Shown here one piece after another: positions 46,228-54,990 of a stretch of 64,000 nt of DNA. This DNA is from an uncultured Chloroflexia bacterium (GTDB lineage: Bacteria > Chloroflexota > Limnocylindria > Limnocylindrales > CSP1-4), in NCBI GenBank assembly GCA_963778955.1, contig CAVZWI010000001.1, positions 480,697-544,696 of the forward strand. The letters run 5' to 3'. The number at the start of each line of letters is the position of its first letter. The first letter of the stretch is position 1. The position numbers were made by a program, and so were the translations under genes. The notes beneath the pieces were generated by a model. It ran no database searches and had not been told where the DNA came from. It saw only the letters and a list, made by a program, of their open reading frames with translations.

Positions 46228-46270
46228 CCACGTTAAGCGTGAAGTGAGAGCGCCTCCTGATGATGCGTCG

Positions 46271-49200
46271 ATGGCCGCAACACAGGTGACCTTCGAGCAC
46301 AACGATCGCAGCTCCGCAACCGGAGGAAACGCCCGCGCGCATCCATCTGGGCTTGCGATCATCGCCAGCAAGATCAGCCCAGCGGTCCCAGTACGCTCGG
46401 TGCTCAGTCGCCCAAGGCTCGTCGACTGGTTCGGCCGCCACGCCGCGGCGCGATTGATCCTCATCACGGCGGAGGCGGGCTACGGCAAGTCCACGCTGCT
46501 CAATGACTTCGCACTCCAGACACTCGACCGCTGCGCGTGGTATCGGATGGAGACGTCGGATGGCGATTGGATCACCTTCCTGAGTCACATGGTGGCCGCC
46601 CTCCGTGAGGTCACTCCGGGCTTCGGGTCAGCCACCGAAGCGCTGCTTCGAAACGTGGCTGCGATGGGACCCTCGAGGGAGGTCGTGCTGGCCCAGTTCC
46701 TGGCGGACCTCGGCTCGGTCGAGGCGGGGCGCATCGCCGTGATCCTGGACGACTACCAATACGTCGAAGGATCTGGTGACGTACGCATGATCCTGAGCCG
46801 CATGTTGGAGCGGGCACCCGATCAGATGTACTTCATCCTTGGAGGCCGAGGCAAACCCAACCTCACACTCGGTCGCCTGATCGCCCAGGGCCGTGTCGCC
46901 GAACTGAATACCGACGACATGCGCTTCAGCCGCCCGGAGATCGAGGAACTGTTCGCGGTGACCTATGGGCAGCCGTTGGACGATGCCACCTGCAGTGTGG
47001 TGGCAGAGAGGACCGAGGGTTGGGCTGCGAGCCTGCAGTTGGTCGCAGCAGCGATCGCCCAGACCCAGCCAAGCGAGGTGGCGAGCTTCATCCGGGCGCT
47101 GAGCGGCGCGAGTGCGCCCATCTATGACTTCCTCGCCGAGGAGGTCCTGACCCGCCTGTCACCAGAAACACAGCGCGTCCTGATGCACGCGTCCATGATC
47201 GATCGAGTCCAGCCAGACTTGGTCCGGGCGGCGTTGTCGGAATCGAATGACGGGCCAGAGGCGGAGACCGTCGATGCCGCGCTCGATGACGCCGAGGCCC
47301 TCGGACTGCTTGGGAACAGGAGCAACTCAGCGACCAGCGGCCGACGCATCCATCCACTCTTCCGAGACTTCCTCCAAGCCCAACTCGCCGGGTCAGTCTC
47401 TGGATCGGCGAATCCTGGCCATGCATGGCGCCATCGCAGCGGCAGCTGAATCCTCGGACTGGCAGGTCTCGGCGAAGCACTTTGCCCTGGCAGGGATGCC
47501 GGAGGATGGCTACCGAGTCCTGAGTTCGGCCGCCAGTGAGGCGTTGGGTACGGGGGCCTGGGGGGCGGCGGTCGAGGTGGTGGAACTGATGCCGGGCACG
47601 CCACCTCCGGTTGCGGTCAAAGTGATCCAAGCCAGGGCGCTGGTGAGCGATGGACGTGCGGACGACGCATTCGAGCTCCTTTCGAACGTCGACCGACGGA
47701 CCCTGTCGCCAGAGGAACGCGGGCTGGTCGGCCTCACGTGTGCCGCCATCCACCATATGAACGGAGACGGCGCCAGAGTCTCTGAGGAAGTCGAAGCGAT
47801 CGCGGCCGACGATCACGTGCCCTCGCCACTCCACGAGGTTGCCGTCTCCTGGCGTCAGATCCTGGATGCAAGCGCAGGCGGGTGCATCACCGACGCTGTC
47901 CATATGCTCCGCCGGCTTGCCGTCGACCAACGCCGGGCTGGCCTCCACTACTTCGCGGGCGTAACTCTGCACAACCTTGCCTATGCCGAATTCGCCATTG
48001 GCGAGATATCGACAAGCTCAGGCCCTAGCCCGCGACTCACTGGCCACATCTTGAACGGACCGACGATGGCACGGGCATTGCGGCATCAACGCGAACGATT
48101 GCTGCTGTCGCGGCCGCAGAGATGGGGGACCTTGAAGAGGGGTTGCGAGCATCGTCCGCTATCGCCAGTGAACCAGGAGCCACGGCAGACGCGATTGCAG
48201 ATGCAGCCTATCTCCACGCCGTGTGTGGCCGAAACAGCCAAGCCCACTCGCTGCTGGCCCGGTTCGAACGACGAGACGCTCCGTGGTCTCGCGAGCTTGG
48301 GTCGCGCGCCCAGGGGCAGTACGCGACGATTGCGCTGCAATTGTGCGAGGGCCACTTGTCGGCGGCTGAAGCGACCCTAGTCGACCTTCAGCGACTTCAA
48401 TCAGCTGGCATCGATGCACTGTCTCGGATCGCGCTGGTTAACGCGACTGTGGCGGTGGTGCGCAGGGCACCCAACGCCGAAGATCTACGTTCGTCTCGCC
48501 CTAGACGCAGCCTCGGTTCAGAATGCTTGGAGATGGGAAGCACGCGCACGGATTCTGGAAGCAGTCGTCAATCGTGATCCCGACGGCCTAGCGCACTTGA
48601 TTGCAGCCGCAGAAGAGGAGTCGGCGTTGGCCGTCCTCGAGTTGGCGGACGCCATCGCAACCACAATTGGCTCCCTCGTCCCAATCCCCGATGCCCTTGA
48701 ACGCTCGATTCTGCGCGAGCCGGCCCGATGGATTGCCGCGCTGCGGCGTCAAGTCCAAGACGAGCGCAGTGAGGATGCGAGTGCCGCAGCATCGCTGGTA
48801 GCGCGGTTCGGATCGGCTACCGATGCCGCAATTCTCCGGGAGTTCGACCGCGCCTGCGAAGGCAAGAGCAAACGCCGAGGCTTGGCGTCACAACTCATAC
48901 GTCGTGTCAGCCCAACGGTCCGCGTTCATGACCTCGGACTCACGAGCTATGAGGTAGGTAGTCGCCTCGTGACCATCACGGAGACACGGCGCAAGTCGGC
49001 AGCCCTGCTTCTCTACTTGGTTACCCGGCCAGGCCTAGCCGCGGCAAGAGAGCAGGTGATGGAGGCTCTATGGCCAGATCAGAACCCGAAGTCAGCCTCG
49101 AACAGCCTCCACCAGACGATCTTCTTCCTCCGCAGGGACATCGAGCCGTGGTACGAAGATGGCTCGACGGCGGACTACGTGCGCGTTGAGTCAGAGTTGG

Positions 49201-49655
49201 TCTTCCTGGATCAGGAACTATTCCAAATCGATAGTGTGGCCTTTGCGCGACAGGCGGCTGACATCCTCGCTTCCGGAGCAACCCTCAAACGCGGCCCCGA
49301 ACTCTTGCGGCTGTACAAGGGTGGATTTGCCCCGGAGTTCGAGTACGAGGAATGGACTGAGGACTGGAGAGTCCAACTCCATGGAGCGTACTTGCATCTC
49401 GCGCACGCGACGTCCCGGGCACTAATCGTTGAGGGACGGTATCCGGAGGTCGTCGACGTGCTTACGCCAGTTGTGACTCTGGATCCGACCGCGCTGGATC
49501 TGCGTTCAACGCTCGTCTCGTGTTTGGCAGCCATCGGCGCTGCTGACGCCGCTCAGGCTCACTACCGCAGCATGGCCGCAGCTCATGAGCGTGACCTTGG
49601 CGTTCCTGCGCGACCATACGAGGAGTTGACCAGGAGACCACCCGGCCATGAATGA
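46271..49655 (+). CDS. large MalT-like STAND ATPase/TPR regulator with C-terminal winged-helix + BTAD; several frameshifts (about 47400, 48010-48070, 48485)
   Basis: LSRPRL, AEAGYGKST, ILDDYQ, TEGWAASL, IYDFLAEEV, HPLFRDFL; C-terminal LLLYL...REQVMEALWPD, LRRDIEP, LYKGGF...EEW. Confidence 0.82.
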
Positions 49656-49904
49656 GTAACCCTACGTACTAGTACTTATAGGGCCCAGACAACCCCGTGC
49701 CTAGTGTGCGTCGTGATCAGTCAACTGGCTGATTGCGACCAAGGAGCGTGCACCTTGCACCACTTCGGGGGGCTCGAGAGAGGGGACCTTCGAAGTTGGG
49801 GGACCGTGGCGCTCCCCAATCGATCCCGCTGTGGCTAAAGCCTTGCGGGGCAAGAAGGGGTATGAAATGAATCCAGTCAATCACGTCAAGCCCTGGTAGT
49901 TCAG

Positions 49905-49997
49905 ATGCCTCGCACTATGCTGTCGAGGCTCACGCTGCTATCGACCCTCATCGCGACCCTAATCATCGCGGGCAGCGCGGGCATAAGACCAATCTGA
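49905..49997 (+). CDS. unannotated 30-aa hydrophobic peptide, putative signalling-peptide precursor
   Basis: MPRTMLSRLTLLSTLIATLIIAGSAGIRPI*: basic N-region, hydrophobic core, AGSAG, short tail; directly upstream of the HD-GYP and DUF5317 genes; alternative start at 49917. Confidence 0.65.
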   Translation: MPRTMLSRLTLLSTLIATLIIAGSAGIRPI

Positions 49998-50096
49998 AGG
50001 GCCTAGCGCGCTCCCAGTACGAATGTTGGATGGGGAGTACACCGTATCAGTCGTGATACTGGCATTCTCCCTGTTGGCATTCAGGAGTAGCGCGTC

Positions 50097-51508
50097 TTGT
50101 CATCGAGCCTTCGGATTGTTCTGGTAGCCGTCCCAGCGGCGGCTATCGCGCTGCTCGCGGTGACTTGGCATCTGTTCCCCCCCGATGTTGGCCCTTGCTC
50201 CCACTTGATATTCGGGATTGGTCAACTTGGAGTTACGCGACCCTCCTGTTCTGGATCGGGGTGGCACTCGTAGCGTCGGCGTCACCGGTACATGTCCCAC
50301 GAGGAAACGTCGTGAGTGTCGCGGCGGCCCCGATTATCGCGGCGGGCATTCTCGGAGGGCCCCTAGCTGCCGCTCTGGTAGCTATCGTTGGAACGCTTGA
50401 GTGGCGCGAGTTCCGTGGACACGTCCCTTGGTATGGCGTCGTCTACAACCACTCATTCCCAGTCTTCGCCGCCGTGGCATCAGGTGCGGTCTATCTCCTC
50501 GTGGCAGACCAATTTCCGGTAGGACGGCATCTGACGGGTGTCTATCCGAGTCTGATTGGAGGCGTAGCGTCGGGCGTCGTCTATGTGCTTGTCGGGACTG
50601 CAATGTCCTCCCTGGCTGTCGCCCTGCGGGAAGACCGTCGGCTACTGGTGGTGGTCAGGTCAGATTTCCGCACATTCGGGTTGACGCTGATCGGACTGAC
50701 GCCGATGGCGTGGCTGATGGCGCTGGCATTCGGAGTCGTAGGCCCATTCGTGGCGCTCGTGTTCGCGGTGCCGCTGTACACGACTCGAGCGGCGTTCAAG
50801 GTGGTGGTGGACATTCGAGAGATGTTCACCCAGACCGTACGAGCACTCGCGTCCGCCATCGATGCTCGAGATCCCAGCACGAAGAAGCACTCCGAGCACG
50901 TGTCCGGTATCGCAGTCGAGATCGGCCAGGCCATGAACTTGAGTGAGACCGAGTTGGAGCAGCTCGAATGGGCCGGTCTCCTGCACGACATCGGCAAGAT
51001 CGGCATCCGGGACGCCGTGCTGCTGAAACCAGAGAAGTTGACACGCGAGGAACGGATGCTGATGAACGAGCATCCAGCCAAGGGCGAGGAGATCCTCAAG
51101 GACGTCGACCGACTGGCCGCTGAGCGCCCACTCATCCGGCACCACCACGAGTGGTACAACGGCTCCGGGTATCCTGACCGTCTGATCGGTGAGGAGATCC
51201 CGCTGCTGGCGCGCGTTCTACATGTCGCCGACGCGTTCGAGGCCATGACTGCCTCACGCCCCTATCGCCCTATCCCCTTGAGCACGGCCGAGGCGATCGC
51301 GGAGCTGGACCGCTACGCGGGCATCCAGTTCGATCCCAACGTGGTCAAGGCATTCGCGCGGACCAGGACGGCGATGCAGACGATGCCAGACCAGGACGAA
51401 CCAGGTGAGCTGGAACAGCCGCTCGCGCCGGTGCCGACGCTGGGCCAGGTCGCGGCATCGCGAGCCAAGGGCGCGCTGCCGACGAGTTCTGCTTCGGCCG
51501 AAACCTAG
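50097..51508 (+). CDS. multi-TM sensor HD-GYP c-di-GMP phosphodiesterase; probable TTG start at 50097 with a frameshift near 50190
   Basis: AGGAG at 50083 then MSSSLRIVLVAVPAAAIALLAVTW; about 7-8 TMs; AIDARD..TKKHSEHV, LLHDIGKIG, HHHEWYNGSGYP, ADAFEAMT..RPYR. Confidence 0.9.
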
Positions 51509-51597
51509 ACGGAGCCCTCCCAACCTATGAGGGGTCGGACCGCGCAAACCCGAGCGCGCGCGACGGCGCGCGCTCGACCACACCCGAACCACCACTG

Positions 51598-53588
51598 ATG
51601 CTGCTGGTCGCAGTCATCCTGGGCGTCCTTGCCGGTCTGGTAGCGGGTGGGCGGCTGAGCAACCTCATGTCGGCCCGCCTTCGCTTTGGCGCCCTCATCA
51701 TCGCGGGCCTGTTGCTGCGCGTCGTGACGCAGCGGCTCATCGACGATGGCGTCGACGTCGTGGAGCAGCTGCGCCTGCCGCTGTTCGCACTGTCGTTCGG
51801 CCTGGTGGTCGTCGCTTTGTGGCTCAACCGTTCGCAGCCAGGACTCCTGCTGGCGATGGTCGGAGTTTCTGCCAACGGACTCGCCGTGGTTCTCAACGGC
51901 GGCTACATGCCGGTGTATCTGCCAGCCGTGGAGTTGGTCGGGCTCAGCGTCGATGACCTCTCGACCGCCTTCAACACACCGCTTCCGACCGACCTCGGCT
52001 GGGATTTCCTGCTGGCCGGAGGTCCGCTCGGCGATGTGCTGCCCATCGGCATCCCGCTCCTGACCAATGTCATCAGCCTCGGTGATGTGCTGCTCGCGGC
52101 GGGCATCGCCTGGTTCCTGTTCTCGGCTGTCGCGCGCGGTTCGTCCGATCCCGACAGCGGCGTGGTCTCGATGTGGAGCGCCAAGGCACGGACAGAGTCA
52201 AGCGGAGATCCAACGCCGACTCGTGCTGGCCTGGACCGACCGGTCGTCATCGGCTCGGGTATGGGTCCGGGGCTCAGTTCGACACGGCCCGGAGCCACGT
52301 TCGGGACGCCACCGGCAGGGTCGGCCACTGCTGTCCCGGGCGTCGGACAACGGATCCGCGAGCACCCCTATGCGCGGTTGGCACGCGACCCACGCTTCTC
52401 CGCCTTCTGGCTGGCAGGGACGATCAGTCTGTTCGGGGACCGGTTGCACCAGATCGCATTGGGCGTGATGGTCCTGGCCGTTACCGGCTCGGCGATGCAA
52501 ACCGGGCTGGTTTTCCTGGCCGCGACCTTGCCCAATCTGGTACTCGGGCCGATCGCCGGCACCTTCGTCGATCGCTGGGACCAGAAGCGTGTGATGGTCG
52601 CCACCGACCTGTTGCGCGCCGCACTGGTGGTGACGCTGCCGTTCCTGGCTGAGGTGCACATCTGGCTCATCTACCCAGCCGTCTTTCTCATCACCACCAT
52701 CAGCCTGTTCTTCCGTCCAGCCAAGGCCGCCATCGTCCCGCGTATCGTGCCGCGCGAGGACCTGACTCCCGCCAACGGCGCGATGTGGACCGGGGAGACG
52801 GTCGCCGACATCGCTGGCTACCCCCTGGCCGGGGTGTTCGTGGCCATGGTGGGCGCCAACCTGGCGCTGGCGTTCTGGATCGACGCGGCCACCTACATCG
52901 TCAGCGCGGTGCTGCTTGCCGGACTCGTGATCCCCCTGTGGCACGGGGGGCGGCGACCCGTGTCAGTGGAGCGATGGCGGCCTTCGTCGCGGAGTTGCGC
53001 GAGGGATGGCACTTTCTACGAGGCGACACGGCCCTCTTCCAGAACACGATGGTGAGCGTGATGGCGCAGCTTTCGGTCGGTGCCACGCTGGCATTGATGG
53101 TCGTGTATGCCCAACGGTCGCTCGATGGCGACGTGGTCCCCTATCCCGAGAACTACGCCCTCCTGGAGGCGGCGATCGGTGTCGGGAACCTCGTCGGTGG
53201 GTTCATCGTCGGTGCTATCGGAGCGCGACTTCGCAAGGGTTGGCTGGTCATCACCGGGTTTGCCGTGATGGGCCTCGCGACCATCGTGCTGGGTCTGACC
53301 TCCAATGAGTTGCTCGCGGTCACCGCGGCTGTGGTGATCGGCATCTTCAACCTCGTCTATGTCATCCCGAGTCAGACGCTGTTCGCCGAACGCACACCGG
53401 CGGGCATGATGGGGCGAGTCGTGGCCATCCGCTCCAGCATCGTGATGGGTGCGCTGTCCGGGGCGATGGCCGTAAGCGCCGGACTAGCGGATCGTGTGGA
53501 TGCTGGCTTGATCATCGCCGCCACCGGTGTCCTCACGGTGATCTCTGCTGTCGTCGCGGCCTGGCTGCCGGCCGTGCGCGACGCTTAG
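51598..53588 (+). CDS. DUF5317 domain fused to an MFS transporter, frameshift near 52935
   Basis: N-terminal GGRLSNL...ANGLAVVLNGGYMPV...LGDVLP...ISLGDVLL; in-frame linker; MFS FSAFWLAGTISLFGD, GTFVDRWDQKRVMVATDLLRA, GMMGRV. Confidence 0.85.
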
Positions 53589-53693: not shown

Positions 53694-54284
53694 ATGACCG
53701 ACCAGCACGAACCGAAAGACGCCATCACCGACGATCCACCAGTCACGGAGACCGAGGGGGTCGAGGCAACTACGCCTGAGGCGGCCACGCCAGCATCATC
53801 GGCGAGTCCGTCCAGGACGGCGGCGGAAGGCTCGACGAACCCCGCCGTGAAGAGTTCGTCGAAGCCGGCGGGCAAGGGACCCGAGAGCCCCGACGAACTG
53901 CCCTACTTCGACGATCCGGTGAGCAAGTGGTGGATCGTCCTCATCGCGGCGGTGTTCGCGCTCATCTTTGCCTGGGCGATCCTCCTCGGCTCGGGCGGCC
54001 TGCTCGGTGGCCTGCTCGACTCAAGCGACTCCAGTGTCGCGACCTCGTCGCCGGAGGCCACGCCCAGCGCTTCCATGGAGCCGGGGCTGACTGCCGCACC
54101 AAGCGTGTCGCCCGTAGCCACCGCCGCACCGCCTGCCACGGTGGCGCCCAGTCCCGAGGCCACCGCAAAGCCGACCACCAAGCCTGAGCCCACCAGCATG
54201 CCGACGCTCGAACTGACGGCCCAGCCAGACGCGTCCGTGGCGCCGGGAGTCAGCCAGGAACCCGCCACCAGCCCAGGTAGCTGA
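53694..54284 (+). CDS. single-TM protein with a Pro/Thr/Ala-rich tail
   Basis: LPYFDDPVSKWWIVLIAAVFALIFAWAILLG followed by a PTA-rich linker. Confidence 0.7.
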   Translation: MTDQHEPKDAITDDPPVTETEGVEATTPEAATPASSASPSRTAAEGSTNPAVKSSSKPAGKGPESPDELPYFDDPVSKWWIVLIAAVFALIFAWAILLGSGGLLGGLLDSSDSSVATSSPEATPSASMEPGLTAAPSVSPVATAAPPATVAPSPEATAKPTTKPEPTSMPTLELTAQPDASVAPGVSQEPATSPGS

Positions 54285-54293
54285 CGCCATGGG

Positions 54294-54990
54294 GTGAACG
54301 GGAAGCCTGTCGGGCCGCCTTCGTCCGACCCCTTCGCGGCCGAGCGCATGGCCATGGTCCGCGACCAACTGGAGGCACGTGGCATCCACGACCCCGCGGC
54401 ACTCAGCGCCATGGCGATCGTGCCCCGGGAGGCCTTCGTTCCGGAGGAGCAGATCGGCGACGCGTACGCAGACGGCGCCATGCCCATCGGACATGGACAG
54501 ACCATCTCGCAGCCATACATCGTGGGCCGCATGACAGCCCTCCTCGAGCTAACCGCCCAGGGCTGGCCCTGGAACGACGCGCCTCCGTCCATCCTTGATG
54601 TCGGGACCGGCTCGGGCTACCAGGCGGCGGTGCTGGCGCAGACGGGCGCCCGGGTCGATCTCGATCGAGCGTGACCCGGATCTGGCCGCGGCCGCACGTG
54701 AACGCCTGGCGCGCCTCGGCTACGAGGTCGCGGTGATCGTCGGTGATGGAGGTGCCGGCTATCCTCTGGCCGCACCCTACGCCGGCATCGTCGTGGCCGC
54801 GGCCAGCCCAGGGGTGCCCGGGCCACTGATCGACCAACTGGCTGACGGAGCCCGCTTGGTGGTGCCGGTCGGATCGCGCCGGTCACAGCGCCTCACGGTG
54901 GTGCATCGAACTGGCCGGCGTACGGACACGACGGTCGCTGACGGCTGCGTCTTCGTACCACTGCTGGGCACCTACGGCCAGCCTGACTGA
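54294..54990 (+). CDS. pcm: protein-L-isoaspartate O-methyltransferase, frameshift near 54655
   Basis: [44 protein letters not shown]; SIERD...GDG..G...APY...LVVPVG...FVPL. Confidence 0.93.

Follow-up and report, generated by a model that had tools for sequence, protein, structure and literature searches.

A DUF5317 domain with an LspA-like aspartate pair belongs to a distinct membrane protein family whose genes are paired with mini-protein and cyclic di-GMP enzyme genes in Chloroflexota

Signal peptidase II (LspA; Peptidase A8, PF01252) has a fold of four transmembrane (TM) helices, and its two catalytic aspartates lie where the last two helices meet the outer face of the membrane. Small membrane proteins such as MgrB (with PhoQ), AcrZ (with AcrB), KdpF, and CydX bind and tune sensors or pumps, and AgrB/AgrD, SHP-Eep-PptAB-Rgg, and the peptidase-containing ABC exporters process and export peptide signals. 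MASE-type sensors cross the membrane several times, conserve few polar residues, and are coupled to GGDEF, EAL, or HD-GYP outputs; among them, MASE9 of HD-GYP proteins was defined in a preprint (bioRxiv 10.1101/2021.11.05.467447) whose main text does not mention DUF5317. Here, we analyzed a DUF5317 (PF17248) gene in a 64,000-nucleotide (nt) stretch of DNA from an uncultured Chloroflexia bacterium (GenBank assembly GCA_963778955.1, contig CAVZWI010000001.1, positions 480,697 to 544,696; referred to as the window), whose product the initial annotation had read as an LspA-type aspartyl protease. No function is on record for DUF5317, and neither this name nor PF17248 or IPR035168 was found in any paper in the literature that we searched. 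Our analyses show that DUF5317 genes in Chloroflexota and on one Bacillota plasmid are paired with a mini-protein gene and a GGDEF, EAL, or HD-GYP gene, whose products are enzymes of cyclic di-GMP (c-di-GMP) turnover. The window locus is a variant of this widespread, uncharacterized three-part set in which DUF5317 is fused to a major facilitator superfamily (MFS) transporter, and the set appears to be undescribed in the literature searched.

The set shares individual features with each of these systems. Like MgrB, AcrZ, KdpF, and CydX, its mini-protein is a single-helix protein of ~30 residues encoded beside a polytopic partner, but no member of that group is known to end in A-[GP]-x-[RK]-W or to be linked to c-di-GMP. 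Like AgrB/AgrD, SHP-Eep-PptAB-Rgg, and the peptidase-containing ABC exporters, it can bring together a tiny hydrophobic precursor, a membrane protein that could process it, an exporter, and a TPR-type regulator. In contrast to these peptide-signal systems, its tail is conserved across phyla and its output is c-di-GMP turnover, and none of the searches made here related it to AgrB, Eep, or C39 domains by sequence or by fold. With LspA it shares a conserved Asp pair 17 to 18 residues apart at the outer membrane face, a second Asp that stands at the N terminus of the final TM helix and is followed by x-x-I/L-x-x-G, and a partner or substrate whose signal-peptide-like helix ends in small residues. 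It differs from LspA in that DUF5317 has no significant sequence, profile, or fold match to that enzyme and in that LspA substrates carry a lipobox Cys at +1, whereas 60 of the 61 peptides paired with DUF5317 have no Cys, so that no lipidation is possible in these.

The strings on which the initial annotation relied (GVSANGLAVVLNGGYMPV, LGDVLP, and VISLGDVLL) are translated from the open reading frame (ORF) at window positions 51598..53055 on the forward strand. The assignment of this protein to DUF5317 was correct, since residues 27 to 174 match PF17248 with an E value of 2.6e-21 and 76.6 bits, far above the cut-off of 25. The two aspartates that had been placed near positions 52033 and 52084 are D146 and D163, each encoded by GAT, and they are indeed 17 residues apart. 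The conservation of both, which had been proposed as a check, was high and well in excess of chance: D146 is Asp in 184 of the 186 members of a DUF5317 alignment that includes representatives of 50%-identity clusters and whose members are mostly <50% identical pairwise, and D163 is Asp in 178 of them, with 6 of the remainder being gaps. In a second alignment, both were invariant (102/102 C-terminal halves). The spacing between the two is 18 residues in 167 of 178 members, and the spacing of 17 is confined to the clade of the window protein.

The conserved positions extend beyond the Asp pair. G89, N93, N100, and P105 are retained in all 186 members, and in an alignment of 69 relatives these four and M104 are invariant, while G17, G18, N77, G82, G101, G102, D146, P151, S160, G162, D163, and G169 are at least 90% conserved. 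The window protein has all of the residues that are invariant or at least 96% conserved among the 186 members (G89, N93, N100, GG-x-MP, D146, S160, and G162-D163). The family is large, comprising 7,615 clusters (50% identity) at an E value of ≤0.001 for DUF5317, and it was present in 64 of 201 Chloroflexota genomes.

An AlphaFold2 model of residues 1 to 191 (predicted local distance difference test [pLDDT] score, 94.3; predicted template modeling score, 0.86) contains five TM helices (residues 2-15, 31-49, 59-76, 83-99, and 161-180) and a 60-residue outer loop (residues 100-160) that joins TM4 to TM5 and contains four short modeled strands. Counts of Lys and Arg residues over the 186 members place loops 1 and 3 and the C-terminal tail inside and loops 2 and 4 outside. 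A C-terminal tail on the inside is what a cytoplasmic linker to the MFS part of the window protein would require, and the conserved Asn/Asp site would lie on the outer face, which agrees with the side of the membrane that the initial annotation had given for the Asp pair. A search of the ESM Atlas gave no usable match outside PF17248.

Relatedness to LspA, the central claim of that annotation, was not borne out. The window protein had no PF01252 match at E values of ≤0.1; the genome's true LspA, encoded by a canonical lspA gene between ileS and rluD, matched this model with an E value of 2e-34. When the DUF5317 family was compared with LspA proteins from the same order by hhalign (69 versus 22 sequences), the probability was 2.6%, in an alignment that placed D146/D163 onto the conserved D150/D168 of LspA (numbering of the genome's own enzyme). 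A deeper comparison (186 DUF5317 versus 55 LspA sequences) lowered the probability to 1.3% and left 25 columns, in which the S-x-G-D helix was aligned with the N-x-A-D helix of LspA; this LspA set came from phylum-wide loci, because a homologue search with the genome's LspA gave close relatives only (≥67% identity). A fold comparison had also been proposed as a check. In searches with Foldseek and VIA-align (models with pLDDT scores of 94 and 90), LspA was not among the best 25 and 50 matches of the whole domain or the best ~45 and 50 matches of the C-terminal half, and a PDB sequence search with the family profile (E ≤ 10) returned carbamate kinase (E value, 0.23) as its sole match and no LspA. 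Absence from these match lists does not by itself prove different folds; within the reach of these searches, however, the annotation's claim fails under its own refuting condition of an unrelated fold prediction.

The two families also differ in their motifs. DUF5317 is modeled with five TM helices versus four in LspA, and its first Asp sits on a loop strand. The invariant residues of the 22 LspA sequences are N138, D141, R142, D150, N165, and D168, but TM4 of DUF5317 has G-x3-N-x6-N-G-G-x-M-P in place of the G-N-x-x-D-R of LspA, with no D-R, and in its second motif, S-x-G-D, an Asn stands six residues before the Asp versus three in the N-x-A-D of LspA. Residues 1 to 181 of the window protein constitute a DUF5317 domain, which forms a distinct five-TM family and, as far as these comparisons can tell, is not a member of Peptidase A8. 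Of 46 phylum genomes sampled for LspA, 45 have it (44 of 45 without an unpublished genome, G038), and DUF5317 is present in 64 of 201; the latter is an addition to LspA rather than a replacement for it.

A local likeness to LspA was nevertheless detected. When the 69 DUF5317 members were compared with all of Pfam (24,736 models, E ≤ 10), PF01252 was the only family besides DUF5317 to match more than two of them, with matches that were far under its 25-bit cut-off (8 of 69 members; best E value, 0.013). A custom LspA hidden Markov model (HMM) gave full-sequence scores that mixed several helices, and domain matches were therefore counted by position: 57 of 71 weak domain matches (≥2 bits) paired the last N-x-A-D helix of LspA with the S-x-G-D helix at the start of TM5, whereas reversed decoys gave 4 matches, none of them at this pairing. 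The likeness of the last Asp-helix motif to that of LspA is thus real and consistent, though local and weak. In three genomes without DUF5317, we also noted weak Peptidase_A8 matches (model positions 60 to 137) in frames of 125 to 191 aa (G028:C65:79144-79350, G016:C163:2019-2225, and G040:C2:1157410-1157613), which may represent a divergent LspA-like family.

The peptide that the initial annotation had called adjacent (LIIAG-S) is encoded not directly beside DUF5317 but 1.6 kb 5' of it, ahead of an HD-GYP gene; what stood is that it is a conserved gene tied to DUF5317. The proposal that its Ser replaces the lipobox Cys had to be dropped, as the Ser after LIIAG is unconserved and relatives have Gly or Ala there. 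We likewise rejected a lipoprotein signal as the identity of the peptide, because Cys was found in just 1 of 61 peptides. The ORF is intact, with 30 to 33 codons, in 8 of 12 loci of the genus, and the most divergent genus copy (69% DNA identity) retains its length and residue classes. A homologue ending in ..A-G-G-A-S-F-K-G-W was found in 10 of 15 class or family loci, and in all four peptide types examined, differences fell at codon positions in the order 3 > 1 > 2. Over 61 peptides of 27 to 36 aa, the motif is L-[AV]-[LG]-[GAE]-A-[GP]-x-[RK]-W followed by 0 to 2 residues; the Ala is present in 61/61, Arg, Lys, or His in 56/61, and Trp in 45/61, with 4 to 6 residues after the Ala in 56/61 and Pro directly after it in 18/61. 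The N terminus is basic, with 2.3 Lys or Arg residues in the first 12, and some loci hold a tandem pair of peptides. Neither Pfam nor NCBIfam matched any of 12 example peptides at E values of ≤1. As far as sequence can tell, these peptides form an undescribed mini-protein family, a hydrophobic helix with an A-[GP]-x-[RK]-W tail, which is encoded beside DUF5317 by genes that standard annotation misses.

The link to DUF5317 was evident in several scans. An HMM built from the window type only found 9 further small ORFs at E values of ≤1, all 9 of them within 900 nt of DUF5317 and on the same strand (background, 916 of 5,471 small ORFs); it matched 0 of 1,608 small ORFs in LspA control loci. An iterated peptide HMM had matches in 40 of 80 and 11 of 30 loci, none of them far from DUF5317. 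With the genome's own sequences left out of the HMM, two DUF5317-adjacent ORFs ranked first and second among its 22,581 small ORFs (E values, 2e-9 and 8e-6; next, 0.9), and the one from the window ranked first. Across the 201 Chloroflexota genomes, the peptide was present in 28 of 64 DUF5317-positive and 0 of 137 DUF5317-negative genomes. By our own reading of two tables, 33 of 37 peptide places have a same-strand DUF5317 match at a distance of no more than 2.6 kb; in the remaining four, the match is 3.6 kb off (one place), 2.2 kb off and on the opposite strand (one place), or on another contig (two places). The family also reaches a Natranaerobius plasmid, where a 31-codon ORF that is unannotated in RefSeq (L199:2338-2433; tail, ..A-G-G-A-S-F-T-W..) lies 5' of an HD-GYP gene and DUF5317. 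The AGGASF.W tail is thus nearly identical in a Chloroflexota class and on a Bacillota plasmid, as would be expected of a fixed partner more than of a pheromone that evolves fast. No fusion of the mini-protein to DUF5317 was found in 18 N-terminal extensions and 149 C-terminal tails of family representatives.

The second partner emerged from gene neighborhoods, which were covered for Chloroflexota and one Bacillota plasmid and were counted across the phylum with HMMs made from Pfam-assigned neighbors. Among 31 phylum-wide DUF5317 loci (±1.5 kb), HD-GYP was present in 15, BTAD in 13, an NHLP-clan small-protein gene in 9, and MFS_3 in 5. In 80 loci of the paralogue type (±6 kb), a GGDEF, EAL, or HD-GYP gene was present in 47, always within 2.6 kb and in 45 cases on the same strand, compared with 0 of 56 LspA control loci; only 1 of the 80 holds MFS_3. 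Three recurring gene orders were seen: peptide, DUF5317, GAF-GGDEF; GGDEF-EAL, DUF5317, peptide; and BTAD, peptide, DUF5317, NHLP-clan protein, HD-GYP. The partner gene is often translationally coupled to DUF5317 and once fused to it, in a metagenomic representative (P0210) that reads DUF5317-GAF-GGDEF in a single chain; this architecture was found in 1 of the 14 long representatives scanned, and the remainder are stand-alone or MFS fused. The genome of the window contains a second DUF5317 gene (L001:1423-2004, on G000 contig 3), which is stand-alone and encodes 194 aa. A 27-codon mini-protein ORF (1189-1269) whose product ends in A-A-P-F-R-W lies 151 nt 5' of it, and directly 3' is a gene for a GAF protein, itself split by a frame change. 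The Natranaerobius thermophilus plasmid (Bacillota; NZ_CP144220.1) carries HD-GYP and then DUF5317. In that record, the DUF5317 gene is given as two coding sequences, and the first 65 membrane residues of the HD-GYP protein are given as a separate hypothetical protein. Cultured organisms in which DUF5317 occurs include Thermotoga maritima and Thermus thermophilus as well as N. thermophilus.

In the window, the PF17248 domain is fused to an MFS_3 transporter (Table 1). MFS_3/DHA3 proteins are a family of 12-TM exporters that includes EntS and Mef. In the assembly, the fusion gene is split by a frame change between positions 52935 and 52992, beside a C5 run (52932-52936) and a G6 run (52945-52950), and PF05977 matches the N-terminal half with 60.7 bits and the C-terminal half, in the shifted frame, with 30.5 bits. 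By tblastn, the alignment of an intact orthologue (L029; 675 aa) stays in frame 1 as far as 52935 and resumes in the second frame at 52992; the nearest relative (P0354; 663 aa, 90% identical) runs uninterrupted across the break; and contigs of three public runs from two studies (X1, X3, and X4) have one extra base after 52931 or 52934 that restores the frame. Among the longer relatives, 120 of the 120 matches listed combine PF17248 with MFS_3/MFS_1, mostly in 655 to 681 aa. The true product predicted from these sequences is a DUF5317-MFS_3 fusion of about 663 aa, the split being attributable to a one-base homopolymer indel of the assembly or to a strain variant. We considered and rejected the alternative that the 485-aa ORF is a truncated pseudogene, given the extra base in the three runs and the intact L029 and P0354. 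MFS_3 also lies adjacent to DUF5317 in three loci (L023, L024, and L027). In one locus (L181, on G106 contig 3), the fusion order is reversed, with the MFS part first and DUF5317 last, an order that is hard to reconcile with the topology deduced above, short of an additional helix in the 62-residue gap between the two parts. Likely one-base homopolymer indels were noted elsewhere in the window at 50177-50183 (N terminus of the HD-GYP protein), 54294-54990 (PCMT, two overlapping ORFs), and 46244-49655 (regulator). The gene directly after the fusion (53694-54284) encodes a Pro/Ala/Ser/Thr-rich protein of 196 aa with one hydrophobic helix and no Pfam family.

TABLE 1 Coordinates of the features of the DUF5317 locus (window numbering)
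Feature	Position	Strand	Basis
C-terminal part of BTAD/Trans_reg_C/TPR (SARP-type) regulator	48414..49655	+	Pfam
Tiny ORF MNPVNHVKPW, 10 codons	49867..49899	+	Ends 5 nt before mini-protein ORF; preceded at a distance of 6 nt by AAGGGG (Shine-Dalgarno-like)
Mini-protein gene, 30 aa (MPRTMLSRLTLLSTLIATLIIAGSAGIRPI)	49905..49997	+	Basic N terminus, ~20 hydrophobic residues, short C-terminal tail
HD-GYP c-di-GMP phosphodiesterase gene	50097..51508	+	HD_5 (PF13487), E value 7.3e-40, 136.9 bits
DUF5317-MFS_3 fusion gene	51598..53588	+	Two frames in assembly: 51598..53055 and 52785..53588
DUF5317 domain, residues 1-181	51598..52140	+	PF17248 match; AlphaFold2 model; Lys + Arg counts
D146 codon (GAT), L-G-D motif, start of loop strand	52033-52035	+	Sequence
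D163 codon (GAT), S-x-G-D motif, N-terminal end of TM5	52084-52086	+	Sequence
MFS_3/DHA3-type part of fusion	52384..53588	+	PF05977, PF07690 in both halves; TIGR00900 E values 3e-40 and 2e-23, below cut-off

In the window, these genes form a conserved cassette in the order BTAD regulator, tiny ORF, 30-aa mini-protein, HD-GYP, and DUF5317-MFS, which is the last gene. HD-GYP lies directly 5' of DUF5317-MFS in 15 of 15 class or family loci, and BTAD lies further upstream in 11 of the 15, in frames of >800 aa; 2 of the other 4 loci end at a contig edge. The stretch from BTAD to HD-GYP is conserved across the genus. The BTAD part and an AAA_22 piece at 46244-47446 are probably one large regulator gene broken by indels. 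The listed HD-GYP ORF starts at 50165, but the frame changes near the C7 run at 50177-50183, orthologues have an N-terminal extension, and a TTG at 50097 follows a CAGGAGT Shine-Dalgarno-like site; this TTG is probably the true start. The membrane N terminus of the HD-GYP orthologues matched MASE9 above the cut-off in one locus (L013; 27.1 bits) and more weakly in three others.

Ten of 12 genus loci retain the tiny ORF, which may stop at TAG, TAA, or TGA, and class-level loci have an ORF of 8 to 10 codons ending in K-G-W at its position. Its ending mirrors that of the adjacent mini-protein; it may serve for coupling, act as a leader peptide, or represent the tail in free form. A strongly conserved noncoding stretch (50000-50095; GGATGGGGAGT ... 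CAGGAGT) separates the mini-protein ORF from the start of HD-GYP. A search of positions 49500-51700 with Rfam (E ≤ 1) found no match, and RNAalifold gave the conserved leader a covariation term of -0.01 and hence no support; we therefore make no riboswitch claim.

In eight loci of other Chloroflexota lineages (L015, L006, L010-L012, L020, L022, and L008), an NHLP-clan protein of ~90 aa (NF038399/PF14407-like) is encoded directly 3' of DUF5317, in addition to the mini-protein. The one in L015 scored 54.4 bits (cut-off, 40), and the 7 further neighbors were weak. The mini-protein of the window is unrelated to this clan (NF038399, Frankia_peptide PF14407), and neither the family model nor our alignment A3 found a PF14407/NHLP-like protein in the window's genome (84% complete) at E values of ≤10. 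In two publications, PF14407 is grouped with the leader folds of precursors of ribosomally synthesized and posttranslationally modified peptides (PMC12353581) and listed among peptide families predicted in 2009 (PMC8939145).

Since DUF5317 is partnered with c-di-GMP enzymes, in many cases by translational coupling and in one by fusion, it reads as an input module for c-di-GMP signaling. We propose, with a probability of roughly 45%, that it serves these enzymes as an input module in the membrane and engages the tail of the mini-protein, this binding being a prediction. The mini-protein would insert with its N terminus inside and its C terminus outside, leaving the tail of 4 to 6 residues at the outer leaflet; because its basic N terminus stays inside, the tail would emerge on the side of N93, N100, D146, S160, and D163. 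N93 and N100, on one face of TM4, together with D146, S160, and D163, would form an acidic pocket that holds the basic and Trp residues of the tail, and the state of the module would be relayed to the partner enzyme via the conserved cytoplasmic loops (GGR..R-x-R-W and N-x-R-x-P-G). The pocket may just bind the tail or may also cleave it. DUF5317 would thereby act like a stand-alone MASE-type input domain, with the differences that it is mostly encoded on its own, carries its conserved site in an outer loop of 60 residues, and is accompanied by a dedicated mini-protein; in the window, moreover, the HD-GYP protein already has a MASE9-like domain. In the lineage of the window, the module is joined to the MFS exporter and may gate or report its transport. 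The DUF5317-GAF-GGDEF architecture and the c-di-GMP linkage appear to point to a signaling input rather than to a maturation protease.

Several observations limit the case for an input module or weigh against it. A predicted complex of the DUF5317 domain and the 30-aa mini-protein scored 0.10 and 0.31 versus a mark of 0.32, without controls, and favors neither binding nor its absence. About half of the DUF5317 loci had no peptide match, some of the loci used to train the iterated peptide HMM and our alignment A8 belong to genomes that were then scanned, and related genomes in the scans are not independent of one another. The join in P0210 falls midway in the usual two-GAF neighbor, so that this chain may have arisen naturally or through misassembly. 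In addition, two Asp, three Asn, and one Ser that are invariant at the membrane surface would be less usual in a receptor than in an enzyme or at an ion-binding position, and the exporter fusion, the SARP-type regulators, and the NHLP-clan neighbors fit a system with a peptide product equally well. Such a system would have at its center a convergent LspA-like peptidase, i.e., a membrane aspartyl hydrolase of a fold unrelated to LspA that cuts the mini-protein near its invariant Ala at the outer-leaflet boundary; the released [RK]-W peptide of 4 to 6 residues would leave or re-enter with the aid of MFS_3, and the TPR/BTAD regulator and the c-di-GMP enzymes would respond to it. The near-invariant outer-face Asp pair, spaced like D150/D168 of the genome's LspA, agrees with this reading, as does the build of the mini-protein, which resembles a signal peptide with small residues around the invariant Ala and a very short tail. 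Pro after the cleavage-site Ala blocks type I signal peptidase, so that a dedicated enzyme would be needed for the 18 of 61 peptides with Pro at this position. The exporter, regulator, and NHLP-clan genes of the cassette, the tandem peptides, and the separate ORF of 8 to 10 codons that repeats the ending of the tail, as if the tail were independent, would also be accounted for. However, no hydrolase fold or family was detected in searches that included no profile comparison aimed at Peptidase A24 or other membrane protease families, and the tail is conserved across phyla, unlike those of pheromones. Many loci, moreover, consist of just the peptide, DUF5317, and a cytosolic GAF-GGDEF protein, with no exporter or receptor, and the direct GAF-GGDEF fusion is a sensor-type architecture. 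We consider a convergent peptidase, the main rival reading, rather unlikely. Its most far-reaching form would place DUF5317 at the catalytic center of a peptide system that is widespread but undescribed: the [RK]-W tail would be clipped off a 30-residue precursor at the outer leaflet, and c-di-GMP levels would be set either by the freed tail or by the helix left behind, which MASE9 or the partner enzyme would sense within the membrane. This form, too, strikes us as unlikely.

The invariant polar residues could instead line a path for cations, protons, or small molecules, or an accessory gate of the MFS part, with the mini-protein as a stabilizing subunit, comparable to the tiny subunits of other transport complexes, and the c-di-GMP enzymes as co-regulated genes. 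They do run across the modeled membrane domain, from N77 inside, along one face of TM4 with G89, N93, and N100 (i, i+4, and i+11), to D146 and D163 outside, and the MFS fusions in both orders and the three loci with adjacent MFS_3 fit such a role. Most members, though, are not beside a transporter (MFS_3 is present in 5 of 31 loci of one set and 1 of 80 of the other), the structure matches listed included no channel or transporter fold, and such a role would leave unexplained why GGDEF, EAL, and HD-GYP genes are so tightly linked to DUF5317; we regard an ion or small-molecule pathway as quite improbable. True but very distant homology to LspA, at least in the C-terminal half and with the enzyme repurposed for substrates without a lipidated Cys, would explain why PF01252 is the one extra Pfam family to match more than 2 of 69 members, why 57 of 71 weak HMM matches but none of the 4 decoy matches pair the last Asp helices, and why the first hhalign alignment puts both Asp pairs in register, with a usual family spacing of 18 that equals the spacing in the genome's own LspA. 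Set against the low profile probabilities, the extra TM helix, and the missing D-R motif, such homology seems highly improbable.

Whichever role applies, the partnership with c-di-GMP enzymes, a mini-protein with a simple, mutable tail, and an invariant Asp pair on the outer face make DUF5317 a testable family. If it is a sensor, it would add a two-part, small-protein-dependent input device to c-di-GMP signaling. If it is a peptidase, it would represent a new protease class, and a convergent peptidase system of the kind outlined above would provide both a new class of proteases acting at the edge of the membrane and a new route from a secreted mini-peptide to c-di-GMP.

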